64,000 nucleotides of DNA. It comes from Chiloscyllium plagiosum. Its lineage: Eukaryota. The position numbers and the translations under genes are program-made. The stretch is from contig NC_057718.1 in NCBI RefSeq assembly GCF_004010195.1, positions 65,422,287 through 65,486,286 on the forward strand, read 5' to 3'. Under the pieces are notes generated by a model. The model did not search any database. It was not told the DNA's origin and worked only from the letters and a program-made list of their open reading frames with translations. Positions 1-64,000 of the stretch are shown here, piece after piece; the first letter of the stretch is position 1, and each line of letters opens with the position of its first letter.

Positions 1-33
1 TCCTGAAGAAGGGCTTATGCCCGAAACGTCGAT
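1..33 (+). ncRNA. Minimal type I hammerhead ribozyme motif (family A)
   Basis: CTGAAGA 3-9, extra A, stem II GGGC-TTAT-GCCC, GAAA 23-26, palindromic ACGT, predicted cleavage after GTC (C30). Confidence 0.75.
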
Positions 34-78
34 TCTCCTGTTCCCTGGATGCTGCCTTTTCCAGCAACACATTTTCAC
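1..78 (+). mobile_element. Penelope-like family A 3' end fragment containing a hammerhead motif
   Basis: Same sequence as the 3' ends of the GIY-YIG-bearing copies at 14.4, 18.8 and 20.7 kb; has an internal deletion and stops at the tail boundary (acattttca). Confidence 0.8.
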
Positions 79-80
79 CA

Positions 81-389
81 CCTTCAGCATATTGTCTAGC
101 TATCGCCATTGTTAACAGCTAACCCGAGAATGCAACTTTAAAAAAAAGGGTTTTGTGATTTACACATGAAAGAAGTGAAATTATCACTGTATTCTAACAG
201 ATGAAAGGCTTAACAGACAATCAATTTTTCAATGTATAATTTCAGTTACATCACACTGCAAATTTTTGCTATAAATTCTGTGTTACGATCGAGCCCTCCA
301 CTATCACCTGATGAAGGAGCGTCGCTCCGAAAGCTAGTGTGCTTCCAATTAAACCTGTTGGACTATAATCTGGTGTTGTGTGATTTTTA
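81..389 (+). mobile_element. Penelope-like family B 3' UTR fragment without tail
   Basis: Reverse complement of about 4497-4802; ends at gatttttaa, the same point as the short arm at 4497. Confidence 0.8.
305..339 (+). ncRNA. Minimal type I hammerhead ribozyme motif (family B)
   Basis: Stem I CAC/GTG, CTGATGA 308-314, extra A, stem II GGAGC-GTC-GCTCC, GAAA 329-332, palindromic AGCT, predicted cleavage after CTA (A336). Confidence 0.78.
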
Positions 390-391
390 AC

Positions 392-1250
392 AATGTAATA
401 TCTCTACACAGTCATGCTCCCATTCAATGTCACCACTCTCCCCCCAATCGCTAATCGTCTAATATAGGATTCTTTTGTATTCTTGACTTGATCCTCAATA
501 TCTTTATTTATCTAATGTTCTCTAATCCTACCAGTCATACCTTTCACTCTAATTGGAACATAATGACTCTGAATTCTCATTATCACACTTTTGAAAGCTT
601 CCCACTTATCAGATGTCCCTTTCCCTGCAAAGGATCTACTCCAATTAATTTTGAGTTTTTTTGTCTCATACCATTAAACTTGCCTTACTTCAATTAAAAA
701 CTTTAAATTTTTAATGGAAGTTTTATCTTTTTCCATGAATATTTTAGAACAAACAAAATTGTGATCACTGGACCCAAAATGTTCACTTTCGACCACTTCA
801 GTCACTTGCCCTGCCTTATTATGCAACAGTGGGTTAAGTTTTGCTCCTTCACTTACATATTGATAAAGAAAATTTTCTTGAACACATTTAACAAATTCTT
901 CACTGTGCAAACATATAATGCTATGGTAGTTGTCAATGTTTGGAAACTTAAACTCCACTATTATTACAGCCTTATTCTTCTCACATATATCTGAGATCTC
1001 TCTCCATACTATTTTCCTCAATTTCTCTCTGACTACTGAGGGCCCTATAGTACAGTCCCATCAAGGTGATCTTTCCTTTTTTATTTGTAATTTCAACCTA
1101 TACATTTTCACTGGGATGATTTCTCAGAAATGTCTTCTCTAGTTACAGCAGGAACGTTCTCCTTAATTAAAAACACCACTCTCACTCTTGTTCTCCCCCT
1201 TTTTCTATCCTTCCTATACCATCGCAAAAACAGAACATTAAGCTACCAAT
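392..1250 (-). mobile_element. Decayed CR1 LINE ORF2 endonuclease region
   Basis: ORF 674-1021 (FKFPNID, EEFVKCVQENFLYQYV, EHFGSSDHN) resembles the CR1 APE domain of the 34 kb copy. Confidence 0.85.
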
Positions 1251-1542
1251 CGTATGACAATGTGGAAGTGTAGATCCATGATTCTTTACTTGAAGTAACC
1301 GAAATTACTGTGGCAGTTTGTTGTTCTCCTGTACTGCACCATTAGAAGCATTATCTGAGCTTTTTATGTGATTCCAGACATTTTGATTTCCAATCTCAGT
1401 TTCAGTCCAAGTTTTCTTTGAACCTGGAAGGGTCAATTTCCCTTTCCTGTTTCTTTTCTCTATTTTGGGTATTTCTCAAATTTTTATTCAAGGATTCTGC
1501 TACAATTGCTTTGTTGACCTGCTTTTGCTAACTCTTGACCTG

Positions 1543-1703
1543 TATCCTGAGATCCCTTTTCTATCCAACTTAGTTGCTTAATTTATAATTTATATGTAAA
1601 TGTTCAAATCGGGCTAGTTCTTCATATACTAGCTCGATATGAAAATTGACTTACACATCAAAAATTAAGCAACTAAGTTGGATAGAAAAGGGATCTCAGG
1701 ATA
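1543..1703. repeat. Perfect 42-bp inverted repeat around an imperfectly palindromic 77-bp spacer
   Basis: 1543-1584 is the exact reverse complement of 1662-1703; inner hairpin atcgggctagt/actagctcgat. Confidence 0.95.
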
Positions 1704-2852: not shown

Positions 2853-4546
2853 CCAAACAAGTATATCTTGTTTGATATACTCCTATATGAAGCACCGTGG
2901 GATGTTTTACAATGACAAAATGTTACATAATGGAAATTGTGTGTTTACCCACCAGCAACCTTCCCGCACATCGGTCAAGTAATTATTTTTCATATACAGT
3001 GTGAACCTAAACAACAAGTGTTGATAGGTTTTTTTTGCCTTAAGTGAACAACAGTTGCATCTGAGTTGGTCTTTGTACATTACTTAACCGAAGCATTTTC
3101 TGGCCTGGGTAACAAACAAAAACAGCACAGCTGTCTGTTATTTGCCTCGTTGCCTCAAGCACTTGAACCCTTTTACTCTTAACATATGCATACACACACA
3201 TATACAGAGACTTACAATGTAGAACGGGATTTAAATCTATGGTCAGTAAGTGAACATACTGCTGTGTGTATCATATCAGAAGATTCCATTTGAAGTCTTG
3301 ATTTGAATCTACCAATCCCTTGATCCATGAAAGCGATTTTGTAGGTGGAGTATGGGTCATAGAATTCATTGCTTTTTTTTTCTGCTGAACTGCCAACCCC
3401 TGATCTTGTAATTGCTTAACATGTGGAAGACAAATCCTTGGGTTCATTAATGGCCACTTAAAGATCATAATTTTTCAGCAAGCGAAAGGAGAATGCTGAT
3501 GACAGAGAGAGACCTTCCTTGCTTGGACCTCAGGTGGGAAAGTGGGTGTGCATCCCATTTGGCCCTCTTTTCTGATAGAAGGCTGCCCTAACGTCTCTCC
3601 GCACCTCCATATCCTGCCCCCAGACATCTCTCCTAGGCTTGTTGCTGGCCTGTGGATCTCAGGTCTCTATGTTCCTAAGCTCTCCAGCCAAGCCTCCTGT
3701 CATTGTCCTAGCAATGGCATCCAGAATGGCACTGATCACAGCTGAGAATTATCAGCCAATCAGATTTGCTGGCAGCTATCAAACAGGGCTTCCTGCACAG
3801 ATGAAGTCTTGTTTTTTTTCTCAAGCCAATTTTATAGAATCCCCACAATTGATGCCCCTTAGAGCAAGTCTCATAGATTGTTGCCTGTGGTCTATTCTGC
3901 ACTGCTTGATTTCAATCAAAACTGTAGCCAGGTCATTAGGACCATAGAAGACCCTTAAGCTTTCTCTATCTCGGAAATCTATTGCAGCAGAAATGGACCT
4001 CCAGTTTCATTTACCTATCTCAGTTCCGTGTCACTTGATACCCTTACTGATTACAAAAAAAAACTGTCAATTTTAATATTAAAACTCCAAACATTCACAA
4101 GTTTTTTTGGGGAAAGAATTACAGAATTTCTCCAGCTTTTGTGAAAAGGAGGTATCTCTGATGTCCATCCTAAATGACCTAGCTCTAATTTTGTGATCAT
4201 GTGCCCTTGTTCACAATTTCCAAAGAAAGAAAACTGATTCACTGGGATGATTGGTTTGGGTTGGAGGCAGTCCTGGTAAATCCAGTATTTGGAAAGTGTC
4301 AAAGGTTCCTGTATTAGATTTTCAAAAAGGTGGGCTAAGGATATGGGAGTATGTCATGAGATGAAACCTGCTACCCACACAGCTTCAACTAGTTGCTTGT
4401 TGAGCTAGTTGCATAGATGGTTAGATGTTCTGGGAACAAACTATTCACAACTTTCAAATGGCCAACACAGGGAACACAGAGTGTCTAGAACATTATTAAA
4501 AATCACACAATACCAGGTTATAGTCCAACAGGTTTAATTGGAAGCA

Positions 4547-4581
4547 CACTAGCTTTCGGAGCGACGCTCCTTCATCAGGTG
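4547..4581 (-). ncRNA. Hammerhead motif (family B), left arm
   Basis: Reverse complement of the motif at 305-339. Confidence 0.75.
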
Positions 4582-4974
4582 ATAGTGGAGGGCTCGATCG
4601 TAACACAGAATTTATAGCAAAAATTTGCAGTGTGATGTAACTGAAATACATTGGAAAATTGATTGTCTGTTAAGCCTTTCATCTGTTAGAATACAGTGAT
4701 AGTTTCACTTCTTTCATGTGTAAATCACAAAACCTTTTTTTAAAAGTTGCATTCTCGGGTTAGCTGTTAACAATGGCGATAGCTAGACAATATGTTGAAG
4801 GTGTTAGCCCCCTGTGTTCTCTGTCCTGATGTTTAGATTGATTCTAATCTAAAAGGTGAGATAATAGTTTTACATAAATTCATGCAGTTTTTGAGCTCAG
4901 AATTCTAAATGAATGTATGCAGTTTTTGAGCAAATTGCAATGTAACTCTGCAAGTACAAATTCACCCCACAAAA

Positions 4975-5205
4975 TATATGTGTGCATGTGGGTCATTGTC
5001 TATCTGCGTGTGTGTGTGTCTGTCTGGGGTGGGAGTTGTGAGTGTGAAAAAGTGTGTGTGTGTAGTGAGTGCAGAGTGTCTTAAGTCTGTGAGGGGGTGC
5101 ATGTGTGAGTGTGGGAGTGTGTGTGTCTATAAAGGTGTGTGTGTGTCTCTGTGTGCGCGTCTGTGTGTACCTGTGTCCGTGTGTATGTGAGAGTGTGTGT
5201 ATGTA
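4975..5205. repeat. Degenerate (GT)n tract in the family B 3' UTR
   Basis: GT-rich low-complexity sequence between the ORF stop and the ribozyme. Confidence 0.9.
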
Positions 5206-5489
5206 GTGCATTGGTGATCACCTGTAATGTGACATGAACCCAAGGTCCCGGTTGAGGCCCTCCCTAAGGGTACCGAACTTAGCTATCAGCTTCTGCTCGG
5301 CCACTTTCCTCTGCTGCCTGTCCCGAAGTCCACCTTGGAGGATTGTCATCCGAAGGTCCGAGGCTGAATGTCCTGGACCACTGAAGTGTTCCCCAATAGT
5401 GGTCCACGACATTCAGCCTCGGACCTTCGGGTGACCATCCTCCAAGGTGGACTTCGGGACAGGCAGCAGAGGAAAGTGGCCGAGCAGAG

Positions 5490-5987
5490 NNNNNNNNNNN
5501 NNNNNNNNNNNNNNNNNNNNNNNNNNNNNNNNNNNNNNNNNNNNNNNNNNNNNNNNNNNNNNNNNNNNNNNNNNNNNNNNNNNNNNNNNNNNNNNNNNNN
5601 NNNNNNNNNNNNNNNNNNNNNNNNNNNNNNNNNNNNNNNNNNNNNNNNNNNNNNNNNNNNNNNNNNNNNNNNNNNNNNNNNNNNNNNNNNNNNNNNNNNN
5701 NNNNNNNNNNNNNNNNNNNNNNNNNNNNNNNNNNNNNNNNNNNNNNNNNNNNNNNNNNNNNNNNNNNNNNNNNNNNNNNNNNNNNNNNNNNNNNNNNNNN
5801 NNNNNNNNNNNNNNNNNNNNNNNNNNNNNNNNNNNNNNNNNNNNNNNNNNNNNNNNNNNNNNNNNNNNNNNNNNNNNNNNNNNNNNNNNNNNNNNNNNNN
5901 NNNNNNNNNNNNNNNNNNNNNNNNNNNNNNNNNNNNNNNNNNNNNNNNNNNNNNNNNNNNNNNNNNNNNNNNNNNNNNNNNNNNNNN
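5490..5987. other. Assembly gap
   Basis: Run of N. Confidence 1.
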
Positions 5988-6027
5988 TTTGCTATAAATT
6001 CTGTGTTATGATCGAGCCCTCCACTAC

Positions 6028-6062
6028 CACCTGATGAAGGAGCGTCGCTCCGAAAGCTAGTG
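6028..6062 (+). ncRNA. Hammerhead motif (family B), right arm
   Basis: CAC-CTGATGA-A-GGAGC-GTC-GCTCC-GAAAGCTA-GTG. Confidence 0.75.
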
Positions 6063-6705
6063 TGCTTCCAATTAAACCTGTTGGACTATAACCTGGTGTT
6101 GTGTGATTTCTAACTTTGTACACCCCAGTCCAACACCGGCATGTCCAAATCATGTCTAGAACATGTTTCAGTCCAGCTGCTAGAAATGCAACAAGGAGTC
6201 ATTAATGCTCATGATTACTGTGTGAAAATGTGATACAATAGGATGTGAAATTCACAAAGTTATGTAGGGCACAGTCATCACTGCAGATCCTGAGAGGCTT
6301 GATTTTGTAAGGAGACAGTGTTAGACTCTTCAAAGGAATGGGTGGCTGCTAACCTCTGAAGCTTTCTCTAGCTATATCTGCTTGGTCAATTTGGTTTAGC
6401 TCTCCCTTCAGGGAGAAGCTAACCATCCTGTCAGCCACACGCTCGATCAGAGTATCAAGAAATACATCAGCAAAATGTGTCCTTCTTTGAGGATTGCTGT
6501 CCTAAATCCCCCTCCCCCCCAGCTCTATGTTTGCTTAGTCCATCCATTTGCAAAGGCAACAGCAAGCCCAGTCATGAGTGCCATTCAAATAACCCATTTT
6601 TTTTCCTAGTTCCCATCTCGTGCTCATGCCTGACTCCCTCATTTGGGCACCAAACCCGCCTTCAGGTCAATTTGTAACTGCAGTTTTGAAAACTGTGCAC
6701 ACTGA

Positions 6706-9106: not shown

Positions 9107-9159
9107 TCCAGGTTGGAAGCCCAACCATGAATGAGCATTCACCCCATTGTATCGACCCT

Positions 9160-12049: not shown

Positions 12050-12770
12050 AAATCCAAGTTCCAGTATCCTGTCAACTCAATTAGGAATCTTACATATTTC
12101 AATAAAATCACCCTCATTACTCTAAATACCAAAGAGTATGGGCCTAACTTATTTAACCTTTCATCCCAGAAAGTGATCTAGTGAACATTCATATTCTGCC
12201 ACCAACATGCTCTTTGTGTCCTCAAACCTTGTAATTCCATTCGACTTTTCATACTTAGAAAACTTGGATACATTACTTAGTTTAAGCCATTGATATAGAT
12301 TTAGGTGCCAATACTGACCTTGTAGTGCTCCACTAGGTTGGTAATTTGAAAATGCTACAGTTAGCCCTAGTTCCTATTTACTGTCCATTACGCTGTCTTC
12401 CATCCATGCTAATCCATTATTCCCAATATTATTTTGCTTTATACCTTATCAAATGTCATTTTTAAGAATCCAAATAAACTATATTTACATCCTCGAAAAA
12501 CTTTAAGGCATTTTTGCCAAACAAAACTCCCTTTCACAAAACCCAGATTGATTTTCTGATCAGACTATGATTTTCTAAGTGCATTGTTTAGACAGTCGAA
12601 TAATTGTTTTCAACATTTTTCAAAGAGTGATATCAGTCAATTGACCTGTAATTCTTTCTTTTCTCTTTTCCTTCTTTTTTGAGTTCAGCTTGCTAACTTT
12701 CCATCTGTTCTAGAATCAAGATGATTTTGTAAGATTATCAGAAAATCTGCAATTTGTAGCCAGCTGGTTA
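12050..12770 (-). mobile_element. Highly decayed CR1 fragments
   Basis: Patchy similarity to CR1 RT segments elsewhere in the window. Confidence 0.5.
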
Positions 12771-12782
12771 CTGTTTATGATA

Positions 12783-12953
12783 AGAAAGTAAGGACTGAAG
12801 ATGCTGGTGATCAGAGTCAAGGGTGTGGTGCTGGAAAAGCATAGCAGGTCTGGCAGCATCAAGGAGCAGGAGAACTGACGTTTCAGGCATAAACCTTTCG
12901 ACTAGAAGGGCTGATGCCCGAAACACAATTCTCCTGCTCCTCGGAAGCTGCCT
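12783..12953. mobile_element. Degenerate family A palindromic mini-element
   Basis: Tail-bearing arm (-) then short arm (+), joined inside the hammerhead region. Confidence 0.75.
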
Positions 12954-14018: not shown

Positions 14019-14521
14019 TATGAGAAGTTTGGTGGGTGCGGCTGTCCCAGAGATGTTCTCTGAAACACCCACCAACCCAACTGCCCTGTGGTTGAACACT
14101 TCAACACCCCCTCCCACTCCATCAAGGACATGCAGGTCCTGAGCCTCCTCCAGCACCAAACCGTTACCACTGAACACCTGGAGGAGGAACGCCTTGGGAC
14201 CCTGCAACCACACGGGATAAACGTGGATTTCAACAGTTTCCTCATTCCCCCTCCCCTCACATTATCCCAGTCCCAAGGCTGCAACTCGTCACCACCCTCC
14301 AGACCTTCTATCACTCCCCCTCTGATCTATCACCTTCTCCCTCACCTTTATCCACCTATCACTTTTCAGCTACCCGCCCCACCCACTCCCTCCCATTTAT
14401 CGCTCAGCCCCGGCCCACAAGCCTCATTCCTCATGAAGGATTTATGCCTGAAGCGTCGATTCTCCTGCTCCTCGGATGCTGCCTGACCTGCTGTGCTTTC
14501 CCAGCAAAACACTCTCAATTC
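14019..14521 (+). mobile_element. Penelope-like family A 3' fragment with short 5' inversion
   Basis: VEHFNTPSHSIKDMQVL...GTLQPHGINVDF endonuclease C-terminus, degenerate hammerhead, TSD ttgttgtgaaac at 14007-14018 and 14522-14533. Confidence 0.85.
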
Positions 14522-16460: not shown

Positions 16461-16663
16461 GGTATTTTCTTTTCAGAACCACTAACAAGTCAACAACTGC
16501 AGAGAAGACTAATGACAGTGAGACAGCAAAACAGCAGCACCATCATCCAGAAGCTGTTTCCAAAACACACTCACAGCTTGAAAGCTCTATCAGAACTTGT
16601 TGACTTTTTTCCTCTCATTACCCACATTTTCTACTTGACTGGCTAGCTGGACTGACCAATTCA

Positions 16664-18099: not shown

Positions 18100-18139
18100 T
18101 AATCACGCAATTTTCCTACCCTCTGACTTGCTCTTATTG

Positions 18140-18851
18140 CTGGACAGAACACCCCTGGTCCTCACCTTCCACCCCACCAACCTCCACTTACATCACATCA
18201 TCCTCCACCATTTCCATTACCTACAAACGGACTACACCACCACAGATATATAATTCCCTCCCCACCCCTATCCGCTTGTTCCCTCCTTGACTACCTGGTC
18301 AGGTCCACGACCTCCCCCACCCCCCCAACCAACTCACCTTCCTGTCCCGGCACCTTCCCTTTCCATTGCAGGAATCACAAAACCTGCACCCACACCTCCC
18401 TCCTCACCACCATCCAGGGCCACAAAGGAGCCTTCCACATCCAAAGTTTCACCTGCACTTCCACACATTTCATTTACTGTATCAGTTGCTCCTGATGCAG
18501 TCTCCTCTACATTGGGGAGAGTGGACGCCTACTCATAGAACTATTCAGAGTAAATCTCCGAACACCCGCACCAACCAACCCCACTGTCCTGTGGCTGAAC
18601 ATTTCAACTCCGAGGACATGCAGGTCCTTGGCCACCTCTATCGCCGCTCCCTTACCACCCGACACCTGGAGGAAGAATGCCTCATTTTCTGCCTTGGGAG
18701 CCTTCAACCCCAGGGCATCAATGTGGATTTCACCAGTTTCCTCATTTCCCCTCCCCCCACCTTCCTGATGAAGGGCTTTTGCCCGAAACATCGATTTTCC
18801 TGCTCCTTGGATGCTGCCTGTCCTGCTGTGCTTTTCTAGCGCCACTCTGAT
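18140..18851 (+). mobile_element. Penelope-like (Neptune-type) family A fragment with GIY-YIG domain
   Basis: Encodes TCTSTHFIYCISCS*CSLLYIGESGR (IY...YIG) preceded by a Cys/His cluster; hammerhead at about 18763-18793; TSD cttgctcttattg at 18127-18139 and 18852-18864. Confidence 0.9.
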
Positions 18852-19270: not shown

Positions 19271-19520
19271 ATGAGCTGAAAATGTGTTGCTGGAAAAGTG
19301 CAGCAGGTCAGGCAGCATCCAAGGAACAGGAGAATCGATGTTTCGGGCATAAGCCCTTCTTCAGGAATGAGGCTGGAAGCCTCAGGGGTGGATCCTGAAG
19401 AAGGGATTATGCCCGAAACGTGGATTCTCCTGTTCCTTGGATGCTGCCTGACCTGCTGCACTTTTCCAGCAACACATTTTCAGCTCTGATCTCCAGCATC
19501 TGCAGTCCTCACTTTCCCCT
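19271..19520. mobile_element. Family A palindromic mini-element with two head-to-head hammerhead motifs
   Basis: Arms about 19274-19374 (-) and 19393-19520 (+); TSD caatggactt at 19261-19270 and 19521-19530. Confidence 0.9.
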
Positions 19521-19529
19521 CAATGGACT

Positions 19530-20263
19530 TGTAAGGCACGCTGGGAAATTGAGGCAGACCTTGGCCAAAGTTACTGTGCTCAAAGACTCTGAAATAAACA
19601 AGGTGCAGAACCCAGACAAGCTGCAGCTACACTCGACAGTATACAATTGACCCAGGAGCTGCAGACAATACAATATACACTTGAATTTGAATTGAATGGA
19701 ATTGACCTGAATGCCATCCCCAGGGTAATTGAAAACATGGATTTGTTTAATGGACAAAAAAGCGCCTCACACCCTTATTTGGAAAGGGCTACCTGACCTA
19801 CGTGTCCCCAACAGCTCCAGGAATGGATGCCCAAGGGCCACCCTGGCATCAACATGTCGATGCCTGATTGGGTCCGATCGATCAGGATGTTTGAATCCTG
19901 ATTGATCTTTTGGTGGATATTGAAGACCTCCCAAAAGGATGCAAAGACTTCCAAGTATAAGATTCACCACAACACCACCCTCAGCAGCGGTAACCTGAGA
20001 CCAACCAATGAGAAGAGAAGACACCCCTGGTGCCACCAGGACAATTATCGGCTTGCGGATCAAGGTCAAGATCTAGTGTGGTGGTATATGATCATCCAGG
20101 ATTAAATTAAAGCACAAGATATTTGATTAGATTTATAGTGTAGATTGTTAAGTTGTATAGTATTTTTATTCTAATATCAATTGCATTAATAATAAGTGAT
20201 AATATTTATTTGTTTAAGAGTTGACTTGCAGTTTCTTTGCTAATTATTAGAGTTAAACTTACA
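19530..20263 (+). mobile_element. Possible solo LTR
   Basis: TGTAAG...CTTACA termini and an AT-rich U5-like end; no TSD found. Confidence 0.4.
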
Positions 20264-20298
20264 GTGTGACAGGCACAGTAAGGTTTCTACAAACATGG

Positions 20299-20817
20299 AC
20301 ACACGTACCAAACAACCCCACTACCCCATGGCTGACTACTTCAATGCCCCACTTCAATTCCCACTCGCCAAGGACATGCAAGTCCTGGGTTTCTGCTACC
20401 ACCAAATCTTTGCTACCCGACACTTGGAGGAAGAATGCCTCATCTTCCGCCTTGGGACCCTCCAACCACATGGTATCATTGATTTCACCAGTTTCCCCAT
20501 CTCCCCTTCCCCAACCTTGTTGCAGATCCAACCCTCCAACTTGGCACCACCCTCTTGAACTTCTTCCACTTGCCCATCTTCCTTCCCAACTATCCGCTCC
20601 ATCTTATCACCGTATCACCCCCTACCTGCACTACCTATTGCCTTCCAAGCAACCTTTCCACCCAGCTCTACTCCTCTCCCATTTATCTCTCAGCCCCCTT
20701 GGGCCCTCCACTCCCCACCATTCCTGATGAAGGGTCTATGCCTGAAACATAGATGCTCCTGCTTCTCAGATGCTGCCTGACCTGCTGTATTTTTCCAGCG
20801 CCACACTTTTTGATTCT
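20299..20817 (+). mobile_element. Penelope-like family A 3' fragment
   Basis: KDMQVLG...RHLEEECLIFRLGTLQPHGI; degenerate hammerhead at about 20724; TSD gtttctaca(a/g)acatgg at 20283-20298 and 20818-20833. Confidence 0.85.
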
Positions 20818-24870: not shown

Positions 24871-26117
24871 GGGCTTCATTATTCCCTGGCTGAAACCCCA
24901 ATACTATCCCCTCTGCCTGGCTAACATCATCCTATTTATATGTAGTTCTTTGCTCCTCTTGAATTTTTCCCTTCCAGCTTGCTGTTTCCTGGGTTTGCTG
25001 ACTCCCAAGATGCTACAGCAGCCTATCAATACCTTGCTCATCAAATGCAAGCTTCAGCTTCATAATTGAGCCTGTTCTCACATATTTACACTTTGCAGCA
25101 GATGATGATATTTCTTTTCTTGGTAATACTGAAACCAATTGTTGGAAACAAACACTGCCTGGCCCCTGGGCAGAGATCTGTTAAGTTAGCATTCTCTGGA
25201 TATTGACCATCATACCAGCTTGGCCTGCAAGTCTTATTTGTTATGATCCACATGAAGAAACTGTAAAACAAACCAAAATTCACCAAATCACTCCCAGAAG
25301 AGAAACGGCCATGATTTGTAACTTTAACAGAAGTAATAATCAATAAAAAGAATAATATCTTACAAGGCCACAAACAGACATCACATTTTGTACAGTTCCA
25401 CAATATTATTCTCTATTCACCCAGAGTAACTCCGGTAGTACTACCTAACAACATCCTTGGCCTTTTAGTTTCACAGTTTTGATTATCAGCAGCAAGTCAC
25501 ACTTCTATGAGCCTTTCTCCTTGGCTCATGACAGTCCCAAAGATAACTTGCCAAACCTCCTTAACCAAACAAATTAAACCATTGTTTGGCCATTTCTGGA
25601 AAACATCTAACTCAAAGACATTCACACAGTTTTCCAGGGTTTTAGACTTATTTAGCTAACAATGCCTCCAAGAGATTCTGTCTCTTTTTCTGTCAAACAG
25701 AACAACTGAGCTCTTCATGAGATTCCTGACTTGCTTCTTCTCACAAGACTTCTGTGTTCCTCCTTCTATCTCAGCTTTTTCCTTCTTGCCTGTATCTGTG
25801 TGCTGATCATCTTCACCCCCCAACTCTATTACTTCTTTAGTTCTCTTCTATGACTGCAGTTCTGCTGTGTGCTTGCCAATCACATAGCTTCATTCTTAAC
25901 TTCCTACTTGTTGGTACTGCTTCCAGGTTAAGGGTCACCAGGTCACATGACAGGTACTTCATATTAACAAAGAGGCACAGTTAATCCATTTACTCAAAGT
26001 CCTGAAAATTCTTTAAAATAATTATACTTTTCAGTCATTCTAAAGAAATTACAAATATTCTTTACAGTTCTACTTAGATTTATGATCTATTACCATACTC
26101 ACTGTCCTCTTTGCTAC

Positions 26118-26274
26118 TAAGTCCAAAGTCACACAACACCAGTTTATAGTCCAACAGGTTTATTTGAAATCACAAGCCTTCAGAACACAACCCCTTCATC
26201 AGGTGAAGCCACTGGAGTTGTGACTTCTGATTTTGTCCACCCTAGTTCAATACCGGCACCTGTGCATCATGGCA
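26118..26274. mobile_element. Family B-related palindromic mini-element
   Basis: Minus arm with degenerate hammerhead plus a short tail-bearing plus arm; TSD tcctctttgctac at 26105-26117 and 26275-26287. Confidence 0.8.
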
Positions 26275-28034: not shown

Positions 28035-28808
28035 GCTGTATAGCATGGAAATAGACCCTTCAGTCCAACTTGTCCATGCTGACCAGATAGCCTAAATTAA
28101 TTTAGTCCCATTTGCCAGCATTTGCCCCATATCCCTCTTTACTCTTCCTATTCATATACCCATCTAGATGCCTTTTAAATGTTATAATTGTATCAGCCTC
28201 CACCACTTCCTCTGGCAGCTCATTCCAACCACATACCACCCTCTACCTGAAAAAACTGTCCTTTTAAAATCTTGCGGAGAAAGTGAGGTCTGCAGATGCT
28301 GGAGATCAAAGTTGAAACTTTATTGCTGGAACAGCACAGCAGGTCAGGCAGCATCCAGGGAACAGGAGATTCGACGTTTCGGGCACAGGCCGAAGGGCCT
28401 GAAGAAGGGCCTGTGCCCGAAACGTCGAATCTCCTGTTCCCTGGATGCTGCCTGACCTGCTGTGCTGTTCCAGCAATAAAGTTTCAACTTTTAAAATCTT
28501 GCCCCTCTCACTTTAAACCTATGCCCCTAGTTTTGGACTCTGCTACCCTGGGGAAAACACCTTGGCTTTTCATCCCATCTATGCTCCTCATGATTTTATA
28601 AACCTCTATAAGGTCACCCTTCAGCATCCAATGCTCTAGGGAAAACAGTTCTAGCCGATTCAGTCTCTTCATATAGCTCAAACCCTCCAACCCTGGCAAC
28701 ATCCTTGTGAATCTTTTCTGAAACATTTCAACTTTCACAACATCCTTCCTATAGCAGGGAGACCAGAATTGAAAGCAGTATCCCAAAAGTACCCTAACCA
28801 GTGTCCTG
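28035..28808 (-). mobile_element. CR1/HER1 3' fragment interrupted by a Penelope mini-element
   Basis: FWSPCYRKDVVK...GDLIEVYKIM peptide. Confidence 0.9.
28276..28487. mobile_element. Family A palindromic mini-element (young subfamily)
   Basis: Near-perfect arms; intact hammerhead core CTGAAGA-A-GGGC-CTGT-GCCC-GAAACGTC; 15-bp TSD cttttaaaatcttgc at 28261-28275 and 28488-28502. Confidence 0.93.
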
Positions 28809-31125: not shown

Positions 31126-31129
31126 CAAC

Positions 31130-37753: not shown

Positions 37754-38509
37754 TCAAAGTTTGTGCGAAGATTTGTAGCTCGGGTGCTCGTTGCTGTGGT
37801 TCTGTTCGCCGAGCTGGAAGTTTTTGTTGCAAACGTTTCGTCCCCTGGCTAAGCGACATCATCAGTGCTTGGGAGCCTCCTGCGAAGCGCTTCTTTGATG
37901 TTTCCTCCGGTGTTTATAGTGGTCTGTCCCTGCCACTTCCGGTTGTCAGTTTCAGCTGTCCGCTGTAGTGGTTGGTATATTGGGTCCAGGTCAATGTGTT
38001 TGTTGATGGAGTTTGTGGATGAATGCCATGCCTCTAGGAATTCCCTGGCTGTTCTCTGTCTGGCTTGCCCTATGATAGTAGTGTTGTCCCAGTCGAATTC
38101 ATGTTGCTTGTTGTCTGCGTGTGTGGCTACTAAGGATAGCTGGTCATATCGTTTCGTGGCTAGTTGATGTTCATGTATGCGGATTGTTAGCTGTCTTCCT
38201 GTTTGTCCTATATAGTGTTTAGTGCAGTCCTTGCATGGTATTTTGTACACTACATTCGTCTTGCTCATGTTGGGTAAGGGGTCCTTCGTTCTGGTGAGTT
38301 GTTGTCTGAGCGTGGCTGTTGGTTTGTGTGCCGTTATGAGTCCTAGGGGTCGCAGTAGTCTGGCTGTCAGTTCCGAGATGCTCCTGATGTATGGTCGTGT
38401 GGCTAGTCCTTTTGGTTGTGGTATGTCCTCGTTCCGTGGTCTTTCTCTTAGGCATAAGAGGCTCCCAAGCACTGATGAGTGCCCTATGATTGAACCACAG
38501 AACCACAGC
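37754..38509 (-). mobile_element. Penelope-like (Penelope/Poseidon-type) family C 3' fragment with GIY-YIG domain
   Basis: NVVYKIPCKDCTKHYIGQTGRQLTIRIHEH...REFLEAW..SIN; TSD atagtattaccat at 37741-37753 and 38510-38522; short inverted pieces at 38458-38510. Confidence 0.95.
37829..37868 (-). ncRNA. Hammerhead motif (family C)
   Basis: Minus strand GCA-CTGATGA-T-GTC...GAC-GAAACGTT-TGC, overlapping the ORF stop; stem I GCA/TGC; predicted cleavage after GTT. Confidence 0.75.
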
Positions 38510-44371: not shown

Positions 44372-44625
44372 AAGTGGAGTGATGCTGACATAGTAGTAAT
44401 GTCAATGGACTTGAAGAAGGGCTTATGCCCGAAACGTCGATTCTCCTGTTCCCTGGATGCTGCCTGACCTGCTGCGCTTTTCCAGCAACACATTTCCAGC
44501 TCTGATCTCCAGCATCTGCAGACCTCACTTTCTCCTCAAAGATAGTAACCCATAGTTCCAGGATAATTTTCTGGGCATGTGAGCTTGAATCCAACCATGG
44601 TAAATGGGTGAAAATTTAATTTGAT
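44372..44625 (+). mobile_element. Old tRNA-derived SINE head, split by a family A insertion
   Basis: Box A-like tgacatagtagt and box B-like cttgaatcc; sequence resumes after 44543. Confidence 0.5.
44411..44537 (+). mobile_element. Family A single-arm mini-element with tail
   Basis: Begins at the hammerhead core (tgaagaagggcttatgcccgaaacgtc), ends ctcactttctcct; no TSD seen. Confidence 0.9.
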
Positions 44626-53269: not shown

Positions 53270-53427
53270 GCTGAAAATGTGTTGCTGGAAAAGGGCTTAT
53301 GCCCTGAAGAAGGGCTTATGCCCGAAACGTCGATTCTCCTGTTCCCTGGATGCTGCCTGACCTGCTGCGCTTTTCCAGCAACACATTTTCAGCTCTGATC
53401 TCCAGCATCTGCAGACCTCACTTTCTC
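53270..53427. mobile_element. Family A element with a ~25 nt inverted arm and duplicated stem II
   Basis: Intact hammerhead core at about 53304-53331; TSD ctgg(A7/A8)caa at 53256-53269 and 53428-53442. Confidence 0.9.
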
Positions 53428-53639
53428 CTGGAAAAAAAACAAAACATGTCTGTAAAAATGGTTGCTGATAGGATTTTGGGTAATGATTCTGGTGAAACAC
53501 TTACACCATAGAAGAGACTGGTGTTGCCAAGTTTCAAGGAAAAGAATGGTTTGTGATTGTTAGAATGATGGCTGCAAAAGGAGAATATCCAGTTAATATG
53601 AAGTGCCAGATAGACAGTGCTACATTCGGCTTCATGAAC

Positions 53640-57600: not shown

Positions 57601-58312
57601 CTCCCTTGCAGTCATTGAAATTTGATTAAAAAGAATGAAAGCCTTACTCCAGAAGAGAAATAGGTTTGTGATATCATTGTTCTTGAATATAATATGGAAC
57701 TCACATCCATTGTTTTAAAATAGTAACTAGCATTATCGCCCCTTGATATCTTCATTTGTGGATTTATTTTAAACTTTTAGCATTCCTTCAATTTTCTTGA
57801 TGCTATAACTACATGTGACTAACACACAACCTTTAACATAAATAGCAGCATAGTTATATCAGCCACTCTGTTAAATGAAAATCTTAAATTAATTGCTTCA
57901 AAAAAGATCACTTTGCTCAGAATTTGTTTCAAAGCTTCCGTGTCCTTACCATTGTCACATCACCTGATGCTGTTATAAAGAGCCCTTAACTTAATAAATG
58001 TCCCAAACTATTTCTGTGAAAGAAGGGAGGATCAGTGATGGAGAATGGTGACCAACAACCTGGCCAGAGAGGAGCTGTTGGAAGGGTAGATGAGGATTTG
58101 CAAGAAGGAGAGATTTAAGGTGAGTCTAAAAGAATATGGTGCCAAGACAGTTCCAGGTCATAGCTTTATTTTATGGAAGAAATAAGTAATGACTTGCACT
58201 CATATAGAACGTTTTCACAACCGTGCGGTATCACAAAATACCTCAGGGCCAGGGAGCTATTTGGATGTGTAGCCATTGTCATTCTCTAGGAAATGTTAGG
58301 CTGAGATAAATA

Positions 58313-58482
58313 CATAGAGTCATAGAGATGTACAGCATGGAAACAGATCCTTCGGTCCAACCCGTCCATGCCAACCAGATATCCCAACCCAATCTAGTCC
58401 CATCTGCCAGCACCCGGCCCATATCCCTCCAAACCCTTCCTATTCATATACCCATCCAAATGCCTCTTAAATGTTGCAATTG
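58313..58482 (-). mobile_element. HER1/CR1 3' end (young, short)
   Basis: Near-identical to the 3' ends at 6706 and 31995. Confidence 0.9.
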
Positions 58483-59269
58483 AGACAGTGTAACAGAGCC
58501 AATGGTGAAAGCTGCAACAAATTCAGAAAATGATGCTGAGAGTAACTGTATACCTGTCAAGGATGGGCTCAATCGTGGGTGATGGTGACAAAGGAGGTAT
58601 GTAGTGGAGCAACAATGACTGTGTTGGAATATGGTGCATTCAGATAGAACAACAGGAGGTAATGACAAGGACCACAACATGGATGAGGGTAACTGTGCAA
58701 ACCCTGAGATGTTGGACAGAAACTAAGCACACTCAAGATCAGCTCCAAAACCATGACCACTTTGGTTTGTCTGCACATAACAGCAGAAATCCGTCTTTGC
58801 CAACTGCCCTCAGTACCAAATATATGTGCCTATTCTCAGAGCTGAAAATGCTTGGTAGTTTTGGAGGAGATAAAACTTAAAAGTATAGAATGCTGGTAAA
58901 GGTGTGGATCACAGAAAGTTAACACAGCCTGACATCTGATTTAAGGGCATGATGGCCCTTCTAACACATTATGATGTGTGGACTTTCTTGTCACAAGTTA
59001 TGTTGCACGGTGACCTTCACAGGCAAGAAGCTGGCTAGTCTATTACAAGCACCAAGGTAGTAAATATCAGTGGCCTCCACAGAAATCATCATTGATTGTT
59101 GTGAACCTGTTGTCATCATCAGCATCAAGGGGCCTTCCCTGTGGACATCCATTGTAACTCTGGAAGAAATCTGACAGAATGATTCAGAAATACATTGGGT
59201 CCACACTCAGTGCAGCACACAAAAGCAAGAAGGTTACAATGAATATCTAGAAAATATTTGCTCAACCTC

Positions 59270-59790
59270 AGTTGGCATATTGGTCCAATTCCAAATGTTA
59301 TACTTTAGCAAGAATAGGAAAGCATCAAAGAGAGTGTATAAAAGATTTATCAGATGAGAAACTTTGATAACATGAGTAAATTAAAAAGCTGGAGCTGTTC
59401 TCCTCAGAGAAGATTGAGAGGACATTTGATAGATCTGTTCAATATCACGAGATTTTGGACAGAGTGAAAAAATGGAGAACATGTTCCCATTGCTGATAAA
59501 GTCAAAAAGCAAGGGACACAAATTTAAGATGACTGACAAAAGCAGCAATGACGACAAGAGGCAAAACTCTTTTATGCAGTGAGTGGTTATGATCTGAAAC
59601 ACACTGCCAGAGACGGTGATGAAGTTATATTGAACCATGACTTTCAAAAGAGAACTGGATAATTACCTCAAAAGACAGAAATCTGCAGGTTTGCGGGAGA
59701 TCAGGTGAATTGATCTTGCATAGAGCCAGTATGGTTATAATGGGCCAAATGGCTTCCTTCTGTATTTGATCTATTTGATGATTCTACGAA
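59270..59790 (+). mobile_element. Decayed CR1 3' fragment
   Basis: KLELFSS.RRLRG.LI..F.I remnants. Confidence 0.7.
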
Positions 59791-60365
59791 TGCAATATTC
59801 TGCTTCCAGTGGTAATGTGGTTTGAGTTGGGTCAGGCATTTAATTAGGTGGGTGGTGGCCTACCTGGGTACTGCCTTCATGCCGAAATTAACTACTGGAC
59901 AATAAGACCTGTGGTCAACCTTCCAGTCTACCACCCTGAAGTGGCTAATTAAAGACCTTTTTAAGGACCTCACCCTGCAGTTGGTGGGATAACCCAACTG
60001 CAAGATAGCCCGTCCATGTCTCATAATAAATGCTTTAAGTGTTTGATAGCATTCCTTAATACATGATAAGATATAGACATTTTTCTGTTGTCACATTATA
60101 TGATGCACTAAATGCAGTTAGAATAAACTACAATTGTATAGTTCAGCTTCTATACTTTGGGCAGTTTGTTACCTTGTTCAGGGGCTCCCTTGATTTAAGG
60201 CAATCAGTGTCCAACTGAGGGTTGGACATTGGCAAGGAGGTGCCTGCTATGAGCCACTCTCCTGCCATTATTGCTGGCTTCCTCTATCTCAATTCCTCCA
60301 CTTTCCACGTCCCTGAAGCTGAGAACACTCTGCCAGCTCTCCAATGTACTTAACTATAACCTGAA

Positions 60366-61067
60366 TCATAGAGTCATAGAGATGTCCACCATGGAAACAG
60401 ACCCTTCGGTCTATCTCATCCATGCCGACTTGACATCCTAAATTAATCTAGTCCCACTTGCCAGCACTTGCCCATATCCATCTAAACCTTCCTATAAATA
60501 TACCATCCAGGTGCCTTTTAAATGTTGTAATTGTACCAGACTCCACCAGTTCCTCTGGCAGCTCATTCCATACACACACTGCCCTCTGTGTGAAAAAGTT
60601 GTCCCTTAGGTCCCTTTTAAATCTTTCCCCTCTCACCCTAAACCTAGCCCTCTAGTTCTGGACTTCCCCAATCCTGGGAAAAGGTCTTGTCTATTTACCC
60701 TATCCATGCCCCTCAAGATTTTATAGACCTCTATAAGGTCACCTCTCAGCTTCTGATGCTCCAGAGAAACAACCCCAGCCTATTCAGCCTCCCCCTATAG
60801 CTCAAACCCTCCAACCCTGGCAACATCCTTGTAAATCTTTTCTGAACCTTTTCAAGTTTCACAACATCATAGGAGGGAGAGCATAATTGCACACAATATT
60901 CCAAAAGTGGCCTGTACAAATACCTGTACAGCCACAACATGACCACCCAACTTCTATGCGCAATGCTCTGACCAATAAAGGAAAGCATTCCAAACGCCTT
61001 CTTCACTATCCTATCTACCTGTGACCCAACTTTCAAGGAGCTATGAACCTACATTCCAAGGTCTCTT
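60366..61067 (-). mobile_element. CR1/HER1 3' fragment
   Basis: RPLLEYCVQ, VVKLEKVQKRFTRMLPG, VWNELP. Confidence 0.92.
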
Positions 61068-61159
61068 CTTGATACTCTGTCAGTGCTCCTTCAGCAGAAG
61101 CCACGGCCTTCTCCATGGAACTAATAAGTGAAAGAACTGCTAGCCTCTAATTCACCAGC

Positions 61160-61383
61160 TGAAAATGTGTTGCTGGAAAAGCGCAGCAGGTCAGGCAGCA
61201 TCCAAGGAGCAGGAGAATCGACGTTTCGGGCATGAGCCCTTCTTCAGGAATTTTCTTTCCTGAAGAAGGGCTCATGCCCGAAACTTTGATTCTCCTGCTC
61301 CTTGGATGCTGCCTGACCTGCTGCGCTTTTCCAGCAACACATTTTTAGCTCTTGATCTCCAGCATCTGCAGTCCTCACTTTCT
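61160..61383. mobile_element. Family A palindromic mini-element with two hammerhead motifs
   Basis: Left (-) core intact, right (+) core mutated; 16-bp TSD cctctaattcaccagc at 61144-61159 and 61384-61399. Confidence 0.93.
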
Positions 61384-61716
61384 CCTCTAATTCACCAGCA
61401 TCTCTCACTTGGTAGAACTTTCATTCCCAGGACCTAATTCTGGGTATGGCCAGCTAACTAGCTTCACTAGTGCCTGATTGACCGAGAGTTAACATTTTGT
61501 CATTTTTTGCTGAATTCTGAAATTCTCTGAATCCTCAGGTTTGCTGCTTTGCTGCTTATTCATCCCCTCTTTGAATATAATACTATCCATAGTTTCTTTT
61601 GTAAGCTGTGCTTGCACCACCTTTCCTCTTAATTTTGTGTCAGTCAGGATAATTGCTGCAATTCATGCACTTTTTTTTTAAATACTCTATTGCCTATTGC
61701 CTAGTCACTATCATCC

Positions 61717-61818
61717 AGTTCAGAAGAAGGGTCACTTGACTCAAAACGTTAACTCTGATTTCTCTTCACAGATGCTGCCAAACTTGATGAGCTTTTACAG
61801 CAACTTCTGCTTTTGTTT
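61717..61818 (+). mobile_element. Family D single arm with degenerate hammerhead
   Basis: gtt-cagaaga-a-gggtc-actt-gactc-aaaacgtt-aac: stem I GTT/AAC and stem II kept, core mutated. Confidence 0.7.
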
Positions 61819-61911
61819 GGGGCTTTGCATAGCTTTAGCTCAACTATTAATTCTTGTTCTATTCCTTATAAGTCCTGCCTAAAGTAGATAACCTCATCAA
61901 TGGATGTCCCT

Positions 61912-62214
61912 GGTGCCTCACAGCACCAGGGACTTGGGTTTGATTCCCGCCTTGGGTGACTGTTTGAGTGGAGTTTGCACATTCCCCCCCTGTCTGTGTG
62001 GGTTTCCTCCAGGTGCTCTGGTTTCCTCCCACAGTCCAAAGATGTGCAGGTTAGGTGAATTGGTCATGCTAAATTGCCCATAGTGTTCAGGGATGTGTAG
62101 GTTCGGTGCATTAGTCAGAGGTAAATATAGGGTAGGGCAATGGGTCTGGCTGGGTTACTGTCCAGACTTGTTGGGCCAAATGGTCTGTTTCCATACTGTA
62201 GGGTATCTAATCTA
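61912..62214 (+). mobile_element. HE1-like SINE, 5' end damaged
   Basis: Box B, V core, atctaatct tail. Confidence 0.88.
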
Positions 62215-62369
62215 AAAAAAATCATATGATAGAATTCTTCATTAACATGGAGTGAAGTAGTCACATCCAAAACTTAGGTCCTGGCAGGGCTCAAATTAAT
62301 TGCCAAAGATGGACTGGAGAACTTTACTGAAAGGGCTGACAGTTCCTAGGCAATGGGTAACTTTTAAAC

Positions 62370-63250
62370 AACAATTACAGTGACTATCCTGTCTGACACA
62401 AAAATAAGGTGGTGCAAGCATGGCTTACAAAAGAAACAATGGACAGTATTAGATTCAAGCGGATAAATATAATTGCCAGAAAAAGCAGCGATCCTGAGGA
62501 TTCACAGAATTTCAGAATTCAGCAAAAGAAGACAAAATGTTTCATCAAGATAGGAAAAGTACATGAGAGCAAAATTGCAGGAAACATAGAAATTGCCCAT
62601 AAAAGATTCTATAAATATTGCTAATGACAAATGTAGGTCCCTTACAATCAGAAGGTAGGCAAATAATAGGGAACAAAGAAATAACAGAAGGATTGAACAC
62701 CTACTTTGGTTTTATTTTCAATAAAGATGACACAAATAACTCCCCAGAGTGCTAGGGAATCAAGGGTCTAGTGAGAGGGCAGAACTAAAGGGAATCAATA
62801 TTAGTAAGAAAATTGTGCAAAAGAAATTTGTGGGCGGCATGGTGGCACAGTGGTTAGCACTGTTGCTGCACAGCGCCAGAGACCCGGGTTCAAATCCCGC
62901 CTCAGGTGACTGACTGTGTGGAGTTTGCACGTTCTCCCCGTGTCTGCGTGGGTTTCCTCCGGGTGCTCCGGTTTCCTCCCACAGCACCAAAAATGTGCAG
63001 GTCAGGTGAATTGGCCATGCTAAATTGCCCGTAGTGTTAGGTGCAAGGGTAAATGTAGGGGAATGGGTCTGGGTGGGTTGTGCTTCGGCGGGTCGGTGTG
63101 GACTTGTTGGGCCTGTTTCCACACTGTAAGTAATCTAATAAATTAATGGAATTAAAAGCTGACAAATCACCACAGCCTGATAGTCTACATGCTAGAGTAC
63201 AAAAGGAAGTAGACCTGAAAATATTGGATGTATTGGCAGTCATCATAGTT
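62370..63250 (+). mobile_element. Decayed CR1 ORF2 fragment
   Basis: AWLTKE, KRFYKY, LMELKADKSPQPDSLH. Confidence 0.8.
62832..63139 (+). mobile_element. HE1-like SINE inserted in CR1
   Basis: gggcggcatggtggcacagtgg, ggttcaaatcc, V core. Confidence 0.95.
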
Positions 63251-63582
63251 TAGGAGATAATTCTTTGCCAGAGAATATATGATCCATGGAACAAGTTGAC
63301 ATTTTTTGTTGTAAAACCTAATTTGCTGAATTCCTTCAAGTTTGATCTGGATCTGTCCTTACTAGGGGGAAATTATGACCTCACACAAAATTTAGATCCA
63401 TGAGTAAATTCCTAGTTTTGATCACCTAAATGCGTCCAAAAGGAATTTTCCAAATTTCAAACTCACACTAACTGGCATACTTTATTTTTGATGTTTGCAC
63501 ACCAAGAGATAGTTTTGTGACAATGGGTTGCTTTCCATTTATTAATGTCCCTAACAGCAGTGCTACAGAAAAAAGATAAGGT

Positions 63583-64000
63583 CAAAAGTCCCACAACACT
63601 AGGTTATAGTCCTGGCTATAACAGGTTTATTTGAAATCATAAGCTTTCCTAATGCTGCCCTTTTGTCAGGTGAAGAGAGCATAATGGCACAGAACTTATA
63701 ATCAGAGAGATCAAACATTCATACAACTGGTCTGAGTGGAGTGTCAACAGGCTGAATAATAGGACTCTGCAGAGGACCAAGAGTGTCAGATGGTGTGAGT
63801 AAAATGTCAACAGCTGAATAACAAGTGAAAGGATGCGCATACACATTATCTGCACAGATGAGGAGGAATGCTATGGTCACCTAAAGATGCTGAAAGAGGC
63901 TCTCATAAGAATGGGATATGATGTTCAACCCACTGATTGCCAGTTCCAATGTGCCACAGCAAAAAACCTCAACAACTTCCTCAGAAGACAGACACAGGAT
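63583..64000. mobile_element. Family B-related Penelope element: inverted 3' arm followed by RT thumb coding, running off the window
   Basis: 63583 to about 63835 resembles the family B 3' end on the minus strand; from about 63836 the plus strand reads RIHIICTDEEEC.GHLKMLKEALIRMGYD. Confidence 0.7.

Follow-up and report, generated by a model that had tools for sequence, protein, structure and literature searches.

The window, that is, the whole 64-kb stretch of Chiloscyllium plagiosum DNA analysed here, contains about 22 ends derived from a hammerhead motif: 14 of family A, five of family B (two of them older and degenerate), one of family C, and three of family D. All copies in the 64 kb are solo or inverted, and tandem units that each carry an intact motif, the layout of a non-LTR retrozyme, were not found there. 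Motif positions are quoted as that of C3. The family A copy at 1–33 runs into the window edge, with its upstream sequence lying outside. The features are as follows.

1..77, plus strand: family A end piece, cut by the window edge; core intact with C3 at 3, predicted cut after 30; 2-bp stem I; tail with an internal deletion
79..397, plus strand: family B 5'-truncated copy; motif 305–339 intact, predicted cut after 336, 3-bp stem I
4490..6152, both strands: single family B insertion with two arms; long minus arm (motif 4547–4581), N gap, inverted plus arm (motif 6028–6062) with tail; 12-bp target-site duplication (TSD)
near 5200–5490, minus strand: endonuclease C-terminal remnant of the family B minus arm, within the 4490..6152 insertion
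12766..12953, both strands: old head-to-head pair of family A; neither core whole (truncated or decayed)
14064..14517, plus strand: older family A copy; GIY-YIG C-terminal remnant continuing into a decayed motif at 14430
18127..18848, plus strand: older family A copy with remnants of the Cys linker and of GIY-YIG; tetramer of the motif at 18765 reads ACAT, no longer palindromic
19272..19523, both strands: family A head-to-head pair without an intact motif; 19364(-) has ACAT, 19395(+) has a G17; TSD of ~10 bp
20257..20810, plus strand: older family A copy; endonuclease remnant; decayed motif at 20724
26115..26206, minus strand: older family B-type end; decayed motif
28272..28489, both strands: head-to-head pair of family A, GAAT subfamily; plus arm from -1, without stem I but with an intact core (28399); minus arm from inside stem II; 14-bp TSD
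37754..38509, minus strand: family C (Poseidon-like) 5'-truncated copy; motif 37829–37868, predicted cut after 37832; 13-bp TSD at 38510–38522 and 37741–37753
38460–37849, minus strand: GIY-YIG frame of the family C copy, terminating inside the motif; short inverted pieces at the copy's 5' end
44411..44540, plus strand: family A solo end; starts at U4, no C3
46971..47132, both strands: family D head-to-head pair; decayed cores
53272..53430, both strands: family A end with an intact core (53304); stem I missing where it joins a short inverted piece of tail
61157..61386, both strands: family A head-to-head pair; 61247(-) fully intact, predicted cut after 61220; 61260(+) with ACTT; TSD of ~16 bp; predicted single long hairpin
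61717..61820, plus strand: family D end; two core changes; tail akin to family A
63581..63675, minus strand: older family B-type end; decayed motif

Hammerhead motifs within the window

Motifs were called with a full minimal-hammerhead descriptor, which combines the core, one extra nucleotide, a stem II of at least 3 bp, a palindromic stem III, H17, and a stem I of at least 2 bp. It finds six matches in the window, whereas 300 dinucleotide shuffles average 0.003 (1/300 shuffles had a match). An Rfam scan of the window returned no hammerhead family at E≤1, and the hammerhead call therefore rests on the descriptor and on covariation. Rfam matches to MIR7533, RRE, and others were rejected as inverted repeats with scores far under the gathering cut-offs.

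The core, CUGANGA ... GAAA ... UH in type I order, is present in families A (C3 at 3(+), 28399(+), 53304(+), and 61247(-)), B (308(+), 6031(+), and 4578(-)), and C (37865(-)). All positions that an earlier note on this DNA had given for these three families are confirmed, as is the placement of its predicted cuts after 30, 336, and 6059; it had left unstated that the motif at 4547–4581 lies on the minus strand. That note had also assigned a hammerhead to each of four families in otherwise unrelated sequence. Families A, B, and C carry one by the descriptor core, whereas family D is broken here: its window copy at 61721 lacks the core through two changes (U4, G12), and none of its three ends in the window is intact (0/3). 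Furthermore, families D and A share their downstream tail, and the four cannot all count as unrelated. More than a dozen copies were first counted in the window; of the ~22 ends, the core, the palindrome, and a cleavable H17 persist in 8, and 6 of those 8 also retain stem I.

Stems differ among families A, B, C, and D. Family A has a 4-bp stem II and a stem I of 2 bp in the GATT subfamilies, reaching 4 bp only in the GAAT subfamily. At 28399 and 53304 its core is intact and stem I is gone, because the 5' junction lies at -1. The stem II of family C, previously read as 3 bp, is in fact 6–7 bp with a G.G mismatch.

Genome-wide load and conservation of the fold

The genome holds 202,260 core matches against 168 control matches (129,107, 46,736, and 26,417 against 63, 9, and 96 for the reversed patterns), and a random genome sample gives an agreeing 62 per 1.15 Mb. 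The very large load predicted from the window is borne out. In the same 1.15 Mb, stem II lies in the +1 register in 100 of 221 core matches and in the canonical register in 24 of 221. The stem III tetramer is palindromic in 62 of the 100 +1-register motifs, with the CpG-decay products ACAT or ATGT in 21 more, and H17 is never G in the palindromic motifs (62/62). These counts uphold the extra nucleotide between A9 and stem II and the loop-less 4-nt palindrome described in the earlier note, and its reading that such a stem III cannot close within one molecule also stands.

Motif cores are conserved while subfamily stems covary. Among 26 C-type motifs, 20 of which were hand-picked for diverse stems, 91.9% of stem cells are paired, compared with 27–43% when the alignment is slid; 11 double-sided changes occur against 4.1 in shuffled sets, confined to 2 of 9 pairs. 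The pair G10.1-C11.1 is G-C or G-U in 24 of the 26. Catalytic positions, U16.1, H17, and the palindrome are all retained across A, B, and C although their stems differ. Comparison of core with flank, proposed earlier as a check, favours the core in family A (4/500 vs 41/850 differences) and family C (1/430 vs 23/1376); family B shows no difference (1/110 vs 3/198), and for its variant 1, with two copies only, the test is void.

Host elements

At two family C loci (L144 and L145), a reverse transcriptase domain (RVT_1, E 7.7e-9) is in frame with an endonuclease whose end falls in the motif. Family C also has an ATG where stem II begins, from which a frame runs on through the tail. The family C frame in the window matches Pfam GIY-YIG at E 0.079, which is under the cut-off. 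In families A and B, a CX4CxxC linker precedes GIY-YIG (L299 and L270, respectively), in copies in which no RT was seen. Such a linker (CX2-5CxxC, between RT and EN) marks the Neptune clade and also occurs in Nematis (PMC8557442). Judged by this linker, A and B would be Neptune-type. Family C lacks it, and with its RT and GIY-YIG appears Poseidon-like, in a layout that matches PAc, the Anolis Poseidon element (PMC11167929). These frames, together with the descriptor matches, support the assignment of the motifs to minimal type I hammerheads of Penelope-like elements.

The likeness to PAc (PMC11167929) extends to the ATG at the stem II start, a cut site 27–30 nt beyond, and a pair of 3' ends within an AC-rich stretch, at +74/75 and +111 (+74 and +111 as read for family C). 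Families A and B also have paired 3' ends, ~36–38 nt apart (A: ~+88–92 and +125/126; B: +83–92 and +122–124). They differ from PAc in their Cys linker, and the family A frame begins 162 nt behind C3 (+162), behind the tail rather than within the motif. The region upstream of family A is strongly C/T-rich.

TSDs measure 10–16 bp. Among 40 loci inspected in this assembly with many gaps, none held a complete pLTR-ORF-pLTR unit, and only deleted tandems turned up (L103, L090, and L243); a candidate at L142 was rejected, as it consists of two separate insertions. Non-LTR retrozymes derived from PLEs have been reported from one chondrichthyan, with a mean unit of 363 bp (bioRxiv 10.64898/2026.07.22.740005). 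Outside the window, L103 fits that definition: carrying two intact motifs and a deleted ORF, this 334-nt tandem is flanked by a TSD and was copied whole.

5' ends at the ribozyme's front edge

The 5' ends of copies pile up at the front edge of the motif. They fall within -12..+12 of C3 in 23 of 43 young A copies, 32/49 inverted A arms, 29/57 B copies, and 21/27 inverted B arms (p≤2e-8 in all four sets), and the rate per base is 5–16 times that on either side in young A and all B. This map uses young copies and inverted arms with a stricter anchor and drops copies near stretch edges or N, so ends behind +28 are under-sampled. A first count of 67/150 was set aside because it overcalled old subfamilies without an upstream reference (e.g., window 18765). 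Family C has no pile-up, with 0/45 ends between -85 and +51, many of its loci being ORF-selected. Sample X15 shows a depth step at C3; contig depths are not copy numbers, and because X15 may be the source sample, the step is not independent. A literature search found nothing on a 5'-end pile-up or on shark hammerheads, which subscription papers and supplements may cover.

Cut site and template state

Genome-wide, family A starts show a 2.5-fold excess at the predicted cut site (363 vs 148). However, inverted arms share stem I letters in 19 of 30 fetched loci, and clean joins occur in only 2/30. The family A excess is mostly stem-I microhomology in fold-back junctions, not a cleavage footprint. 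Consequently, the templates of the copies were likely uncut or re-ligated at this site. Family B counts lean slightly up (82 vs 49 raw; ~48 vs 35 after indel-like rows were dropped by eye). A 1.6–2-fold bump in by-eye counts, once taken for a footprint, was traced mostly to microhomology and indels by the genome-wide counts and junction reading. The cut-site patterns left out T-rich upstream letters and are blind to U6 fusions; Rfam gave 0 matches on 16 junction loci, so there is no U6 among those 16.

In one poly(A) single-cell run, of which ~2% was read and which is poorly suited to 5'-OH ends, RNA reads lie over motifs on both strands and span the cut site without ends piling up. At the level of DNA, uncut linear RNA and re-ligated circles look alike as templates.

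Dimer formation in the window

Intact same-strand partners of one family lie 5.7–28 kb apart in the window. The close pairs face each other head-to-head, and an RNA reading through such a pair is predicted to form one long hairpin (-193 kcal/mol for 61157–61390). Such inverted pairs would form long hairpins rather than active dimers, and are likely to be silenced. In the random sample, pairs within 4 kb comprise 5 same-strand and 15 opposite-strand cases, with only 2 tandems under 400 nt. The hammerhead dimer is predicted to lie 5–19 kcal/mol above the best alternative fold. The window copies are poorly placed for dimerisation, and the activity on record is weak even when the motif is dimeric (Cervera & de la Peña 2014, PMC4209133). 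For the single PLE assayed in vitro, cleavage is protein-dependent: the anole motif cuts with protein, with C3-G8 rescue, whereas the ribozyme is dispensable for insertion and uncut RNA is the main substrate (PMC11167929).

Interpretation and alternatives

With a probability of roughly 80%, the motifs fold as minimal type I hammerheads and belong to the end repeats of three or more Penelope-like lineages. On this reading the insertions, mostly truncated, solitary or mirror-image, were likely made from RNA whose ribozyme site was uncut or had been re-joined, and they are likely inert. The earlier view that the dozen-plus window copies are live ribozymes, cleaving as dimers at GUC, CUA, or GUU, seems very improbable. 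Six copies are complete by the descriptor, ~200,000 cores make pairing in trans between transcripts conceivable, and RNA covers the motifs on both strands. Against this, the core is kept in only 8 of ~22 ends, RNA ends do not pile up, and the hairpin-forming close pairs, the scarcity of same-strand neighbours, the unfavourable dimer fold, and the barely active published dimers all count. A motif kept for a non-catalytic role, as a protein-binding site or promoter element that no longer cuts, is also improbable, if less so. In its favour, the commonest A subfamilies have a stem I of just 2 bp, the 30 fetched loci hold no cleavage trace independent of microhomology, and Naiad PLEs thrive without hammerheads (PMC8557442); however, such a role sits poorly with catalytic positions retained across families with different stems, and with protein-assisted cleavage of the anole motif.

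For the source elements, we tentatively propose a composite reading, doubtful as a whole, in which the ~200,000 copies form a fossil map of the PLE transcript, Neptune-type RNA begins at the front edge, the hammerhead acts as a dimer-gated decapping switch in tandem transcripts only, uncut RNA transposes, and stem I serves as a fold-back primer that leaves a false footprint. As part of the main reading, selection on the motif would act in the source elements. In a tandem transcript, two same-strand motifs would swap halves, with stems I and III forming between copies, and this dimer may cut slowly, probably aided by the element's protein. The element RNA most likely starts at the front edge, at slightly better than even odds; since the family A frame lies 162 nt behind C3, a cut would then remove the capped 5' end or free a tandem unit. 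Reverse transcription would begin 85–125 nt behind the motif and cross the cut site. A cDNA stopping at -2..-4 would have an end able to pair with the far arm of stem I and could fold back on it, giving inverted junctions that mimic a cut-site start.

The pile-up could instead mark where reverse transcriptase stops at a bound protein, the ribozyme fold, or the upstream pyrimidine tract, which we consider plausible though short of even odds. The spread of ends over ~24 nt, some inside stem II, and the C/T-rich upstream of family A fit such a stop. However, family B peaks alike despite a different, non-pyrimidine upstream sequence, and the rate falls again within A's pyrimidine tract; a hairpin should halt the enzyme at its 3' foot, where ends are few, and Poseidon-like C has a longer stem II yet no peak. 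It is rather unlikely that reverse transcription is templated by circles, formed by ligation once tandem transcripts have cleaved as dimers (Cervera & de la Peña 2014). Copies do cross the cut site, as expected of a re-ligated circle, short tandems exist (e.g., L103 and L085), and the core is conserved among source lineages. Nonetheless, since a circle offers no terminus at the front edge, this model leaves the stop in about half of A and B copies unexplained, and in vitro the ribozyme is dispensable, with uncut RNA the main substrate.

Relation to known elements and significance

Minimal hammerheads were described in the pLTRs of metazoan Penelope-like elements, including fish Poseidon and Neptune, by Cervera & de la Peña (2014, PMC4209133). 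The extra nucleotide, the loop-less palindrome, and the dimer model are all already there, and the motif itself is not new. The present motifs share its core, the nucleotide between 9 and 10.1, G10.1-C11.1, the palindromic loop-less 15.2-16.2, and a short helix I, and likewise are mostly single truncated motifs, with opposite-strand pairs there 100–700 bp apart. Family A stems (I 2–4 bp, II 4 bp) are shorter than the schistosome consensus, and the accessible part of that paper names no cartilaginous fish and leaves 5' ends unmapped.

The insertions resemble those of EN+ PLEs in their head-to-head arms, one-sided optional tail of 30–40 bp, 10–16-bp TSDs, and microhomology or palindromes at junctions, for which self-priming has already been proposed (PMC3846280, PMC8557442); in the accessible parts of these papers, junction positions are not linked to the ribozyme front edge or stem I. 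As in PAc, both-strand priming fits the inverted arms, and RNA reads do not end at the cut site (PMC11167929).

The 202,260 core matches compare with ~4,000 in coelacanth and ~9,000 in Xenopus (PMC4209133), a ratio that is rough because descriptors differ between surveys. Insertion fossils thus number ~200,000, over 20-fold the 2014 survey counts, enough for a statistical reading of template ends. They suggest that templates were uncut or re-joined and that an RNA end lies at the ribozyme front edge, and they indicate that an apparent cut-site footprint needs correction for stem I microhomology. The question on which they bear is the in vivo role of PLE hammerheads.

Hammerhead motifs in the window

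Six sites in the window satisfy a full descriptor (the core with one additional base, a stem II, a stem III that is palindromic and has no loop, H17 at the predicted cut, and a stem I of 2 bp or more), against a mean of 0.003 in 300 shuffles.

Features of the window (motifs by C3 of the core)
3 (+): family A, full descriptor
61247 (-): family A, full descriptor
308 (+): family B, full descriptor
4578 (-): family B, full descriptor
6031 (+): family B, full descriptor
37865 (-): family C, full descriptor
2538-2852, 16663-16978, 21339-21532, 36329-36656, 51581-51896, 61910-62215, 62827-63139: SINE-like repeat, roughly 315 bp, seven copies
6700-9109, 22519-24012, 28034-35903, 50167-51389, 58301-61067: many LINE fragments
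1524-1718: long inverted repeat, imperfect and with no relation to the Penelope-like element (PLE) families; its MIR7533 match is weak and falls well short of the threshold

The motifs named in the earlier note are present, and an Rfam search did not recognise them as hammerheads. In all, the window holds about 22 motif-derived ends, only eight with core, palindrome and cut triplet intact; at 28399 and 53304 (family A) the core is kept and stem I is gone at the 5' junctions. The note's four families in otherwise unrelated sequence need qualifying, as families A and D have a tail in common; the core of D (61721) carries two changes. The LINE fragments, one of which (32250-33449) matches RVT_1 (E 3.6e-26), are presumably of the CR1/L2-like clade, and a single such fragment contains the family A pair 28272-28489.

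Genomic load and conservation

The very large genomic load that had been proposed is borne out. Exact core-plus-palindrome patterns with A, B or C spacing match the 3.56-Gb genome 129,107, 46,736 and 26,417 times (reversed controls: 63, 9 and 96). The sum, 202,260, is one per 17.6 kb, and a random 1.15-Mb sample is consistent with it (62 matches, 51 of them with a stem I of 2 bp or more). A 2014 survey, whose descriptors differ, gives about 4,000 for coelacanth and about 9,000 for Xenopus (Cervera & de la Peña 2014, PMC4209133).

Covarying stems are supported: across 26 C-type motifs, 20 hand-picked for stem diversity, the core is without variation and 91.9% of stem cells are paired (27-43% when slid), but double-sided changes (11 cells versus 4.1 shuffled) are confined to two of nine pairs. 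Outside CpG sites, the core differs less often than the flank in families A (4/500 versus 41/850) and C (1/430 versus 23/1376), but not in B (1/110 versus 3/198). Because many flank differences are common to several copies, selection on the motif probably acts in source elements rather than in individual copies.

Dimers and host elements

As had been argued, a loop-less stem III cannot close within one strand; in a dimer, stems I and III are each built from the two copies together. With energies that leave out core contacts, four motifs have a dimer fold 5-19 kcal/mol less stable than their best alternative, and in a natural tandem the gap is 14 kcal/mol. Published minimal hammerhead dimers cleave poorly (PMC4209133); the ribozyme of PAc, an anole Poseidon element, is described in PMC11167929 as cleaving only with protein and as not needed for insertion in vitro. 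Close pairs in the window are head-to-head, each predicted to fold as a single long hairpin, and pairs within 4 kb in the random sample are 5 same-strand versus 15 opposite-strand. Outside the window, locus L103 (minus strand) has two intact motifs 334 nt apart and is flanked by a 14-bp target-site duplication (TSD), a putative retrozyme-like natural dimer substrate. L103, L090 and L243 are tandem family A units whose tail continues into the first ORF codons (ATG at +162), followed by a deletion jump to the upstream sequence of the second motif.

No complete element occurs among 40 loci inspected. Families A, B and C each have two 3' ends spaced about 36-38 nt, and head-to-head arms are frequent; 4547-4581 and 6028-6062 (family B) are two arms of a single insertion flanked by a TSD. 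In relatives of A and B the GIY-YIG domain is preceded by a CX4CxxC linker, a mark of Neptune or Nematis (PMC8557442). The window copy of family C, flanked by a 13-bp TSD, has a GIY-YIG-type frame that terminates within the motif (its Pfam match, E 0.079, does not reach the cut-off); in longer relatives, RVT_1 (E 7.7e-9) is in frame with this domain. A frame through the tail begins with an ATG where stem II starts, a layout matching PAc (PMC11167929).

PLE ends of different families often adjoin or enter each other's tails (window 1-397; L003, L043, L146). In the family B pair L265 and L266, the endonuclease end is fused directly to cut-site sequence in both arms, with about 600 nt, motif included, deleted. 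A further motif family absent from the window (L065, L101, L048, L031) has GGGTC/GACTC-type stem II arms, an A/D-like tail and head-to-head pairs.

Where copies begin

Counted from C3 = 0, 5' ends fall within -12..+12 in 23/43 young family A copies, 32/49 inverted A arms, 29/57 family B copies and 21/27 inverted B arms (p<=2e-8 in all four sets). Since junctions vary between copies, these ends are independent events. Family C shows no such peak, with 0/45 ends between -85 and +51 in a set where many copies were ORF-selected. We found no literature on a front-edge pile-up of PLE copies.

These ends may mark the start of the element RNA or a stop of the copying enzyme. On family A, RNA coverage of either strand rises roughly five-fold at C3, as is compatible with passive transcription of abundant stubs. 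The family A frame starts 162 nt behind C3 (three loci); a transcript beginning at the front edge would therefore have the ribozyme within its 5' leader. Most A subfamilies also have a 3' splice site-like pyrimidine tract with terminal TAG or CAG about -25 from C3 (for example window 14400-14430 and 20695-20724); the GAAT subfamily is without this AG. In Drosophila Penelope, helix I is where an intron ends.

Cut-site starts and microhomology

Genome-wide patterns, blind to T-rich upstream letters in both families, give 363 family A starts at the cut site versus 148 three bases downstream; by eye, CAG lies upstream in 72 of the first 100 listed. Among 30 fetched loci, 19 are inverted junctions where the mirrored 5' arm of stem I overlaps its 3' arm, two are clean joins to unrelated DNA, and nine are other inversions, deletions or insertions. 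With the inverted-junction class removed, about 130 cut-site starts stand against 148. The commonest family A cDNA stop is at -4, and a cDNA halted there would anneal across stem I, giving an inverted junction at an apparent cut-site start; several junctions in which a tail of GATT type bears the GAAT of its partner (both A subfamilies) fit this. Family B gives 82 versus 49 raw, or about 48 versus 35 without indel-like rows (by eye). Because the A excess disappears without inverted junctions and B stands at 48 versus 35, templates cut at the ribozyme site would be a small fraction at most. In one poly(A) single-cell run, a weak test, reads span the cut site and their ends do not accumulate there (1,104 reads on C, 1,995 on A).

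Relation to known hammerheads

The window motifs are real, and their kind is already known. Their extra nucleotide, loop-less palindrome, solitary truncated motifs and opposite-strand pairs are shared with the minimal hammerheads of Cervera & de la Peña 2014, who also describe the dimer model (PMC4209133); inverted arms, tails and self-priming of PLEs appear in PMC8557442 and PMC3846280. For cartilaginous-fish hammerheads, we found one species only, in a 2026 preprint (bioRxiv 10.64898/2026.07.22.740005). What is added to this picture is the size of the genomic load, the inference about the templates and the correction of cut-site counts for microhomology.
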